Virus record (IMG/VR): IMGVR_UViG_2630968342_000015
Source: a virus
Taxonomy: Duplodnaviria > Heunggongvirae > Uroviricota > Caudoviricetes
Reading direction: 5' to 3' (one strand)
Length of the DNA stretch: 14,640 nt
The notes beneath the pieces are model-generated. The model was not told the DNA's origin. It was given only the letters and a program-made list of their open reading frames with translations, and did not search any database. The position numbers and the translations under genes are program-made. Positions within the stretch are counted from its first letter, which is position 1. Each line of letters begins with the position of its first letter. This document shows positions 6,862-8,300 of this stretch, in pieces.

Positions 6862-6909
6862 TTGTTCGTGGTTGTTCCACGTTGTTCACTGACAGGATCG
6901 GCATATTTT
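6862..6909 (+). promoter_or_regulatory. Phased TTGTTC repeats (6862, 6872, 6882) with candidate -10 TATTTT (6904-6909); putative activator-dependent head-operon promoter
   Basis: TTTGTTCGTGG TTGTTCCACG TTGTTCACTG at exact 10-bp spacing. Third unit sits 16 bp upstream of TATTTT. 15-mer TTGTTCCACGTTGTT recurs exactly at 14375-14389. Confidence 0.4.
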
Positions 6910-7062
6910 ACCCGAACTGAATCATGAGTATTCTCGCCCGTGGTGCCAGGACGCTGGGGCCACTTTCCCGCCTGTTAATGTGCTCGCCAATATTCATTAC
7001 CAGGCGGGAAAACGATCGGTGCGATTGCTGATTTCCTTATGAAAAACGGTTGAGTTTTTGCC

Positions 7063-7102
7063 GCGTCCTGGAGTTCCTTACTTAACCCCAGGACTTTTTT
7101 TT
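7063..7102 (+). terminator. Terminator/attenuator hairpin abutting the capsid start codon, with the SD inside its 3' arm
   Basis: GTCCTGG (7065-7071) pairs with CCAGGAC (7088-7094) across a 16-nt loop, followed by eight T (7095-7102), then ATG at 7103. AGGA (7090-7093) is the only SD-like sequence. Confidence 0.4.
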
Positions 7103-8260
7103 ATGCCGAGAATAATCGAATTACGCCAGCAGAAAACCGCCATTAAAAATCAGATGCGCGACATGCTGGAGAACGCGGAAAAAGAAAACCGCAGCCTTAA
7201 CGATGCAGAGGGCGCAAAATTTGACGAATTACGCGCTAAAGCTGAATCCCTCGATAAAGACATTTCCCGCCTTGAAGCCATTGCAGACGAAGAGCGCAGC
7301 AAGCCAGGTAAAAGCAGCCAGACCACTGACCCGGCAGAACTCCGCAACTACATCCTGACAGGTGAAACCCGCGCATTAAGTACAGGCGTTCCCGCTGATG
7401 GTGGTTATACCGTTATCCCCGAACTGAACACCGAAATCATGCGAATGCTGACGGATGAATCCACCATGCGCCGCATCTGTACCGTGAAGAAAATCAGCAG
7501 CAACGAGTTTAAGCAGCTTGTTTCCGCTGGCGGTGCGACCGTTAACCACGGTGAAGAGGGTAAGACACGCGAACAGACCAGCACCCCGCAGATTAACGAG
7601 GTGAGCATTAAGCTGTATCCGGTCTATGCGTACCCGCGCACCACACAGGAAATCGTGGATTTTTCCGATGTGGACATCCTTTCATGGCTGACGGGTGAGA
7701 TTGGCGACACCTTCACGGAAACCGAAGAAAGCGATCTGGTTGTGGGCGACGGTGACAAAAAAGCAAAAGGTTTTTTATCCGTACCCCGTGCAGAGAAGAA
7801 CGACAAAGAGCGTGATTTTGGTACGTTGCAGGTAATTAAACCTTCCGAATCTCTGGCGTGGACATCTGCGGACCCGCTGATCGACCTGAAATTTGCATTA
7901 CGTAAAAAATACCGCAAAAACGCGGTCTGGGTGGTTAACTCCACGACGGCGGCAAAACTTCAGAAGGTGAAGAACGCGAACGGTGATTACATCTGGCGCG
8001 ACCGTTTACAGGCGGGTGATCCTGATACGTTGCTGGGCCTTCCGGTCGAATATCTGGAGTTTATGCCTGATAACGTTATTGCCCTGGGTGACTTCAAACG
8101 CGGTTACTACATTGTTGATCACGAAACAGGTGTTCGCACCAGACCGGACAACCTCACAGAGCCGGGCTTCATCAAAATTTTCACGCAGAAATATTTAGGC
8201 GGTGGCGTGGTGGATTCGAACGCGATCAAGATTCTGGAACTGCCACAGGACGACGATTAA
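7103..8260 (+). CDS. Major capsid protein, HK97 fold, with N-terminal scaffold-like delta domain
   Basis: 385 aa. Charged, coiled-coil-like N-terminal ~100 aa followed by a body recognised by eye as HK97-family. ATG 7103 preferred over the TTG at 7058 shown in the ORF track. Confidence 0.9.
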   Translation: MPRIIELRQQKTAIKNQMRDMLENAEKENRSLNDAEGAKFDELRAKAESLDKDISRLEAIADEERSKPGKSSQTTDPAELRNYILTGETRALSTGVPADGGYTVIPELNTEIMRMLTDESTMRRICTVKKISSNEFKQLVSAGGATVNHGEEGKTREQTSTPQINEVSIKLYPVYAYPRTTQEIVDFSDVDILSWLTGEIGDTFTETEESDLVVGDGDKKAKGFLSVPRAEKNDKERDFGTLQVIKPSESLAWTSADPLIDLKFALRKKYRKNAVWVVNSTTAAKLQKVKNANGDYIWRDRLQAGDPDTLLGLPVEYLEFMPDNVIALGDFKRGYYIVDHETGVRTRPDNLTEPGFIKIFTQKYLGGGVVDSNAIKILELPQDDD

Positions 8261-8270
8261 CAGCATACAG

Positions 8271-8300
8271 AAGGGGCTTAAAAGCCCCTTTAGTGTTTTA
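8271..8300 (+). terminator. Partial terminator/attenuator between capsid and protease genes
   Basis: AAGGGGC-TTAAAA-GCCCCTT hairpin followed by a T-rich but interrupted tail (TAGTGTTTTA). Confidence 0.4.

Follow-up and report, generated by a model that had tools for sequence, protein, structure and literature searches.

A conserved leader upstream of the capsid gene of capsid-forming phage satellites is probably an undescribed RNA switch

Two groups of described systems come closest to the leader considered here. In terminator/antiterminator attenuators and riboswitch platforms (trp, pyrBI, T-box and the PyrR/BglG type) a terminator lies directly ahead of the gene, an upstream segment pairs with the 5' arm of that terminator, and of the two exclusive folds the antiterminator can form first. 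In the second group, to which the rpoS leader, the tac/ucb/fbi elements of hok mRNA and the long-distance interaction of the MS2 maturation gene belong, a sequestered ribosome binding site (RBS) is opened by an upstream 'anti-antisense' segment. We analysed a leader with likenesses to both groups in a viral DNA record of 14,640 nucleotides (IMG/VR record IMGVR_UViG_2630968342_000015, referred to as the window; positions are those of the window and features lie on its plus strand unless stated), where it precedes the major capsid gene (HK97 fold, ECs1590; 7103–8260), with which the packaging operon begins. The satellite in the window is EcCIEDL933 (Sp7 in strain Sakai), and its gene content matches that of this prototype capsid-forming phage-inducible chromosomal island (cf-PICI). 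cf-PICIs are recently recognised and widespread phage satellites that make their own heads and take only tails from their helpers. We read positions 6941–7102 as the 5' leader of the cf-PICI capsid/packaging mRNA and as a bistable cis-regulatory RNA, with a probability of roughly 0.55.

Like the attenuators, this leader has a predicted terminator directly ahead of a gene and an upstream segment able to pair with the 5' arm of that terminator, giving exclusive folds of which the antiterminator can form first. Unlike them, it has no conserved peptide and no recognised aptamer or protein-binding motif, and in most of its relatives the output hairpin lacks a U-tract and covers the RBS only. With the rpoS, hok and MS2 type it shares a Shine-Dalgarno (SD) sequence placed in a hairpin, a distant element that competes for one arm of that hairpin and a 5' hairpin that is a possible kinetic trap; however, there is no sequence relation, the cf-PICI switch also carries a terminator in one lineage, and no small RNA (sRNA) or processing step is known for it. 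Compared in this way, the leader is best described as an unannotated RNA motif specific to cf-PICI capsid operons, which would work like a terminator/antiterminator combined with an RBS-sequestration switch and lies outside any described family. We found nothing on the motif in the literature, and the leader probably serves as an RNA switch, hitherto undescribed, that controls capsid expression.

An initial annotation of the window had likened the region 6904–7105 to an attenuator, and direct reading showed all its coordinates to be correct. The minimum-energy fold has three hairpins (z = -4.6 for 6900–7110 and z = -4.4 for 6941–7102, both against shuffles). The 5'-terminal hairpin, hp1 (6940–6963; -15.6 kcal/mol, z = -3.4), has a lower stem of 6940–6944/6959–6963, an upper stem of 6946–6949/6954–6957 and a GACG loop (6950–6953). 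It is followed by hp2 (6964–7011; z = -5.6), a long hairpin of 11 bp plus 5 bp with a 14-nt apical loop (6981–6994), whose base had been noted as a perfect inverted repeat of 10 bp (6965–6974/7001–7010) and is really one of 11 bp (6964–6974/7001–7011). A small 7-bp linker hairpin (7014–7033) comes next. The third hairpin, hp3 (7065–7094), consists of a 7-bp G+C-rich stem (7065–7071/7088–7094; five of the pairs are G-C) and a 3-bp inner helix, with a loop of 16 nt, or of 8 nt when the inner helix forms. As originally described, it arises by pairing of GCGTCCTGG (7063–7071) with CCAGGAC (7088–7094), holds the SD AGGA (7090–7093) in its 3' arm and is followed by a U8 tract (7095–7102) that abuts the capsid ATG at 7103. 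The hairpin with its tail (7063–7102) gave z = -4.5 against shuffles. Its d-score with U8 (a classical terminator discriminant) was about 21, by comparison with 25 and about 20 for the neighbouring intergenic terminators at 6467 and 6821; a consensus terminator scanner made no call, owing to the loop.

Relatives were collected by a capsid-protein search of genomes, IMG/VR and metagenomes, which gave about 170 loci, and by a degenerate hp1 pattern, which gave 120 more. hp1 lies at -125 to -163 from the capsid ATG in about 110 of 142 distinct upstream regions, yielding 95 distinct leaders; the hp1 motif occurred 142 times in 775 kb of loci, always 100–200 nt upstream of a capsid ATG. Class A, the type found in the window, comprises 30 loci, including the diverged L126 with a capsid only 69% identical, and class B, the majority, comprises 116 loci from Citrobacter, Erwinia, Rosenbergiella and many uncultured sources. 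The two classes share hp1, with its 5-bp lower stem (GUGGY/RCCAC), 4-bp upper stem and GACG loop; an hp2 that begins 0–4 nt after hp1 and always has a basal stem of 9–13 bp (-17 to -32 kcal/mol); and an hp3 just before the ATG with a weak SD in or beside its 3' arm. The small linker hairpin is also present in L126. hp2 is hypervariable in sequence with its structure kept, there being at least 25 distinct basal stems; this was judged by per-sequence folding, as MAFFT cannot align it. In class A, hp3 is GUCCUGG...CCAGGAC followed by U7–8 in all 22 distinct upstream regions examined, including that of L126; in class B it is UGGUUUC...GAAACCA and no leader has a U-run. Since the U-tract is restricted to one lineage, the conserved output is most likely access to the RBS, with termination as a lineage-specific addition. 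A separate observation concerns the 10-mer TTTCCCGCCT of the hp2 5' strand (6964–6973), which is repeated within the capsid gene at 7263–7272 (codons for ISRLE); the hp2 3' strand may therefore also pair about 260 nt downstream, perhaps by chance.

The 5' arm of hp3 has a rival partner in hp1. The hp1 strand CCAGGACGC (6946–6954), comprising the loop and flanking stem bases, is the exact reverse complement of the Z segment, GCGTCCTGG (7063–7071), which overlaps the hp3 5' arm; the Z segment can thus pair either with 6946–6954, as a putative antiterminator or anti-sequestering helix, or with 7088–7094. The mutually exclusive 9-nt pairing had been proposed before, and it proved both exact and conserved with compensatory changes in distant relatives. 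Its chance expectation had been put at several percent, which is far too high: when the 159 nt upstream were shuffled 20,000 times with dinucleotides preserved, the exact 9-mer complement arose at a frequency of 0.00045, and any 9-mer complementary to 7057–7077 at 0.0036. The long-range pairing joins GCGUCCUGG with CCAGGACGC in class A, UUCACGUCU with AGACGUGAG in class B1 and UUCCCGUC with GACGGGAG or GGCGGGAG in class B2. Neither strand (6946–6954 or 7063–7071) has a variable position in 15 class A variants, while other parts of the leader vary. Overall, hp1 and the long-range helix are both retained in about 95 distinct leaders, drawn from roughly 280 loci.

Covariation was assessed in 34 leaders that share less than 93% identity, aligned with MAFFT (alignment A2). 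Five core pairs of the long-range helix were paired in 34/34 leaders. Pair 16:139 of this helix is U-A in 27, C-G in four and G-C in three, and column 16 also pairs within hp1 with column 11, as A-U in 27, G-C in four and C-G in three; the flanking pairs 11:144 and 18:137 alternate between A-U and G-C. As a control the partner strand was slid by one to three columns, upon which pairing fell from 82% to 22–51%; the pairs of hp1 and of the class-B-type hp3 were 92% paired in the same 34 leaders. The 120 further IMG/VR loci carried A/T/A at the three covarying positions in 112 cases and C/G/C in eight, with none discordant, counts which overstate the weight of what are few independent events (three lineages). 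A single base with two partners, all three changing together, is the signature of two exclusive helices under selection, and we regard the comparative evidence that both hp1 and the long-range helix are selected as qualitatively strong. RNAalifold, given the alignment alone, returned the long-range helix as the consensus structure, and this is the only helix that classes A and B form in common alignment columns.

Of 17 representatives, 16 have the closed fold (hp1, hp2 and hp3) as their minimum-energy structure; the open fold costs 0.5–12 kcal/mol across the 17, and in L126 it is the optimum. When prefixes of the RNA were folded, a 3' end at 7072–7087 gave the long-range helix as the optimum, and inclusion of 7094 flipped the structure to hp1+hp2+hp3. 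In folding under alternative constraints, which the initial annotation had put forward as a check, forcing the open fold raised the mean unpaired probability of positions -15 to +3 from 0.22 to 0.68 in the window, and an increase was seen in 10 of 10 leaders tested from both classes.

On this basis we propose that in the closed state hp1, then hp2, then hp3 would form and hp3 would bury the SD, and that in the E. coli lineage hp3 with U8 would also work as an intrinsic terminator abutting the ATG. In the open state 6946–6954 would pair with 7063–7071 and take the 5' arm of hp3, so that the terminator would be blocked and the RBS exposed. As the equilibrium lies on the side of the closed state and hp1 is the first hairpin to be synthesised, the default is predicted to be 'off', which would guard against capsid expression from an uninduced island; a factor available after induction (a protein, an RNA or changed elongation kinetics) would then shift nascent transcripts to the open state.

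The same energies suit another account, in which the leader is static and unregulated: its hairpins would stabilise the mRNA as a 5'-terminal stem-loop does, hp3 and U8 would keep the flux into the operon low and fixed, as an unvarying partial terminator or a damper on the RBS, and would insulate the operon from upstream read-through, and the long-range pairing would play no part in regulation, occurring as an intermediate of folding or as an alternative helix of the mature RNA. That the closed fold is the optimum in nearly all representatives agrees with this, as does the failure of Rfam, open reading frame (ORF) and co-occurrence searches to find a sensor or effector; moreover, partial terminators are common in phage late operons, and the record of phage HK106 annotates several rho-independent terminators in its structural-gene region. 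What a static leader leaves unexplained is one position covarying on three strands, the retention of both exclusive helices in all of roughly 215 sequences, and the finding that only the alternative helix shares alignment columns between the classes. We consider it unlikely for these reasons, and continue with the bistable leader.

Where the leader RNA begins was approached through its upstream sequence. A weak sigma-70-like promoter (6907–6934), with a -35 element TTTACC (6907–6912), a 16-nt spacer and a -10 element TATTCT (6929–6934), matches the consensus in only 8 of 12 positions, and the same layout is found in about 20 diverged leaders (-35-like TTTACN, 16-nt spacer and a -10-like TATyyT ending 5–6 nt before hp1). 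In L003 (E. coli JNEC-KY176) all DNA upstream of about 6940 is replaced by unrelated sequence, and the replacement supplies TTGCGA-17-TATAAT at an equal distance from hp1, which we take as an independent argument for the position of the promoter. From this conservation we infer a transcription start at about 6941 (6940–6942) and a leader RNA of 6941–7102. The leader first drawn at 6904–7105 is therefore retained up to 7102, but its segment 6904–6940 would be promoter rather than leader. A 35-codon ORF pointed out at 6924–7031 does exist with its ATG; however, it is unconserved, its ATG lies within the promoter and it begins upstream of the likely RNA start. Leader-peptide attenuation was rejected, as L003 lacks a start codon for the ORF, L026 carries a frameshift in it, and in L126 it opens with GTG and ends in a different tail. 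The anatomy of the proposed attenuator and the conservation of both its pairings have thus held up, and the leader peptide has not.

Further upstream, 53–90 nt from the inferred start (6851–6887), lie a TTGTAAAT box (6851–6858), fixed at 87–89 nt upstream of the first hp1 base in all class A and B leaders, and three TTGTTC direct repeats (6862–6887) with an exact 10-bp spacing (6862, 6872 and 6882), read from the sequence and by comparison of leaders. The box and the phasing of the repeats (one helical turn) are conserved in all class A and B cf-PICIs, and the sequence of the repeats is lineage-dependent (TTACCC-like in L005–L007). This region is probably the binding site of an activator, and the poor consensus match of the promoter fits activator dependence.

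Several points weigh against a regulated, two-state leader, besides the small number of covariation events already given. The start at about 6941 is placed by promoter conservation only, and a consensus promoter scan called nothing at 6907–6934. In other cf-PICIs, those of types C, D and E, the leader is either short or unrelated, and these islands do without one of this kind. The 4-nt loop of hp1 is a poor toehold for opening that hairpin. No sensor was found, in that there is no conserved leader peptide, no Rfam aptamer and no leader-specific co-occurring gene. Rfam gave no match for the whole window at the gathering score, nor for class A and B leaders at E values up to 10 and up to 1, the best scores being 15–21 bits against cut-offs of 44 to 245 bits. 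To look for a co-occurring regulator gene, ORFs from the 1.5 kb that precede each of 167 loci were clustered; the idea was discarded, as no gene was specific to hp1 leaders; ECs1589 (phrog_1957, of unknown function), directly upstream of the leader, accompanies all leader types, and its AlphaFold model is poor (predicted local distance difference test score of 65). A search for leader targets elsewhere inside the island gave only chance-level 10-mers. Finally, we found no experimental record of termination, read-through or an RNA of about 160 nt beyond a single read from RNase E CLASH (cross-linking, ligation and sequencing of hybrids) in strain Sakai, a non-significant chimera of SroC with the 'ECs1590 5'UTR' whose leader part, TTTTGCCGCGTCCTGGAGTTCCTT, is window 7057–7080 (PMC5286369, supplementary file 5). 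This read shows at most that some leader RNA is present in uninduced cells. The cf-PICI papers, sequence-string searches and the supplements of Hfq-CRAC (cross-linking and analysis of cDNAs) contained no sRNA or start site at the leader, and the cf-PICI papers found do not address promoters, terminators or transcription of the packaging module.

Two further observations may bear on possible partners of the leader. SroC carries CCAGGGGCGG, which resembles the hp1 strand CCAGGACGC; its chimera with the leader is a single read (n = 1). Some class B islands of the L002 type encode a ProQ/FinO-domain RNA chaperone (L002 5190–5732; Pfam E = 9e-25) two genes upstream of the leader; this protein is a candidate refolding catalyst, and we offer it as a lead, not as evidence.

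In class A the U-tract ends at 7102 and the ATG follows at 7103, which leaves no space for a promoter, and every class A capsid mRNA must therefore be a read-through product. A promoter and a short leader ending in a terminator likewise head the late operon at lambda pR'-tR' (6S RNA), where Q acts and structural mRNAs are read-through products, and the put RNA of HK022 resembles hp1 and hp2 in being two adjacent stem-loops just after the promoter (hp1 is at about +1, with 0–4 nt to hp2). Read-through could reflect processive antitermination, with hp1 and hp2 acting as a put-like element, or a Q- or AlpA-like protein loaded at the promoter, such that polymerase ignores hp3 and U8. In keeping with this, putL too is a pair of stem-loops (about 70 nt) that follows closely on its promoter, the AlpA of P. 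aeruginosa bypasses a terminator just upstream of its first target gene, and an AlpA-family protein that is needed for induction is encoded on the island. The details are nevertheless unfavourable. HK022 putL and putR were fetched and folded and had no sequence or structural likeness to the leader, on which ground a put-like RNA was dropped; put RNA is conserved, whereas hp2 is hypervariable; and class B keeps hp1 and hp2 but has no downstream terminator to bypass. Unlike lambda pR'-tR', the leader has a cis RNA alternative and, by reading, no -10-like pause element between 6941 and 6975, and its terminator-less relatives keep the leader. No strong internal terminators were found in the operon, and the conserved pairing of 6946–6954 with 7063–7071 would go unexplained. 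AlpA as a Q-like antiterminator was also set aside: the island AlpA matched one PDB entry only ('AlpA family phage regulatory protein'), and no link to the P. aeruginosa complex was detected; that the proteins go by one name carries no weight as evidence. Antitermination of this kind is in our view very improbable.

Satellites and phages also have leader-derived antisense RNAs, namely the CI RNA of P4 and c4 of P1/P7. Like these, the cf-PICI leader is a structured 5' operon RNA with complementarity to a later site in its own transcript; in P4 and P1, however, the pairing represses, whereas in the cf-PICI leader the cis pairing is predicted to activate, and there was no Rfam C4 match to the leader. 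The class A leader is possibly complementary to the mRNA of another element as well. BLAST of the leader against phage genomes found a perfect 21-nt opposite-strand match of 7032–7052 (block 2) to BP-4795 and many Shiga toxin (Stx)-converting phages, in a gene annotated 'major head protein/prohead protease' (nt 548–568 of the coding sequence, carrying AAGGAAA). Taken alone, this match does not rise above noise (E = 0.9). The phage sequence has a second block at a distance of six bases, complementary at 23 of 25 positions to 6975–6999 (block 1; 16 perfect, 6984–6999) over an internal ATG and the first codons of the capsid part; both are spanned by L177 2469–2521. Given the 21-mer as an anchor, we estimate the chance probability of the second block at roughly 1e-10. 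The phage mRNA opposite the leader runs ...CAACCGUUUUUCAUAAGGAAA-AGACCA-UAAUGAAUAUUGGCGA..., and the target covers AAGGAAAAGACCATAATG. In the 645-aa fusion ORF this stretch falls between the S78 protease domain (residues 48–153) and the capsid domain (residues 386–635), and it looks like an internal SD and ATG at which the N-terminal domain of the capsid would begin (MNIGEQIK...).

Such a match raises the possibility of a trans-acting antisense function, compatible with the bistable switch, in which an RNA of about 160 nt ending at U8 would pair with the SD/ATG of the lambdoid (Stx-type) head gene, either repressing a rival capsid or taking phage late mRNA as the cue for refolding the leader itself. 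The two blocks stand in the right order and in antisense orientation over the translation-initiation region of the target, and both fall in regions predicted to be unpaired, block 1 being the 14-nt apical loop of hp2 with its flanks and block 2 a mostly unpaired linker; the predicted hybridisation energy is -28 kcal/mol. The target is widespread, occurring in 1254 of 5426 complete E. coli genomes and in 3–5 copies in O157:H7 strains that also carry the island, and only class A has both blocks together with a terminator able to release a discrete RNA of this size. Set against this, conservation is no higher in the blocks than elsewhere in the leader, and among class A variants no part varies more than block 1; L126 and class B have no such match; the resident prophages of EDL933 do not induce the island; and no interference is seen with the known helpers HK106 and HK446, the known helpers being without the target. 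The longest complementarity to the laboratory helper HK106 is 13 nt, which is at chance level. The minus strand, in addition, reads like an inverted relic of a phage junction, so the blocks could be phage DNA captured passively. On balance we regard a trans-acting role as doubtful.

The minus-strand relic merits description in its own right. From 7052 to 6908 this strand resembles the C-terminus of an unfused phage protease (...TVFHKEISNRTDRFPAW*) overlapping a capsid start at TAATG (MNIGEH...), and the leader region may be what is left, in inverted orientation, of a junction between phage genes. Between the two blocks lies a segment (the hp2 3' strand and the small hairpin) that is common to class A and L126, and L126 has neither block; therefore one simple insertion does not explain the arrangement. 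The idea that hp2 is a general 'programmable' antisense module was abandoned, since eleven class B hp2/linker families and L126 returned only cf-PICI-like records and noise.

The window sequence is 100% identical to E. coli O157:H7 chromosomes, and the same sequence is present in strain EDL933. The island measures 15 kb and lies between roxA and phoQ in E. coli O157:H7; it encodes an integrase, an AlpA-family regulator, a DUF927 primase, SSB and a PerC-family regulator, followed by an HK97-type capsid, protease, portal, connectors, HNH, TerS and TerL. The Sakai annotation gives the island as 'prophage Sp7; untypable' and the PerC gene as pchE (ECs1588). pchE (6189–6461) encodes one of the Pch regulators of the locus of enterocyte effacement pathogenicity island, here carried in a phage satellite, and 27 of the 30 members of the pchE cluster accompany class A leaders in this sample. 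An intrinsic terminator (6821–6843) closes the upstream gene ECs1589 and bounds the control region of the capsid operon, and a near-copy of its hairpin lies at 6467–6484. The two near-identical terminator hairpins, 6467–6484 and 6821–6838 (AGCCGGAG[A/C]AATCCGGCT and a T-run), flank the small gene ECs1589; L003 lacks the DNA between such copies or has other DNA in its place, which suggests recombination between them. The capsid stop codon is immediately followed, ahead of the protease gene, by a 9-bp G+C-rich hairpin (8270–8291) with only a weak T-run, which could be a partial terminator or a stabiliser setting the ratio of capsid to protease.

The class B leader was also encountered in records deposited as phages: LR881103.1, OR850982.1 and PQ569648.1 contain it, the phages named being vB_KppS-Ant (16.5 kb), S.Kent 1-2-1 (3.8 kb) and, at one end of its 106 kb, the Klebsiella phage P12620-1. 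The deposited records are probably satellites or chimeric assemblies rather than phages.

If the bistable reading is true, no control point that acts after initiation would have been described for cf-PICIs before this leader, which would also be a new cis-regulatory RNA motif that Rfam does not contain and hundreds of enterobacterial islands carry, with clean experimental handles in its two 9-nt strands and its U-tract. Should the antisense match prove functional, it would point to conflict or signalling at the RNA level between a satellite and its co-resident prophages, with a bearing on the traffic of mobile elements in O157:H7.

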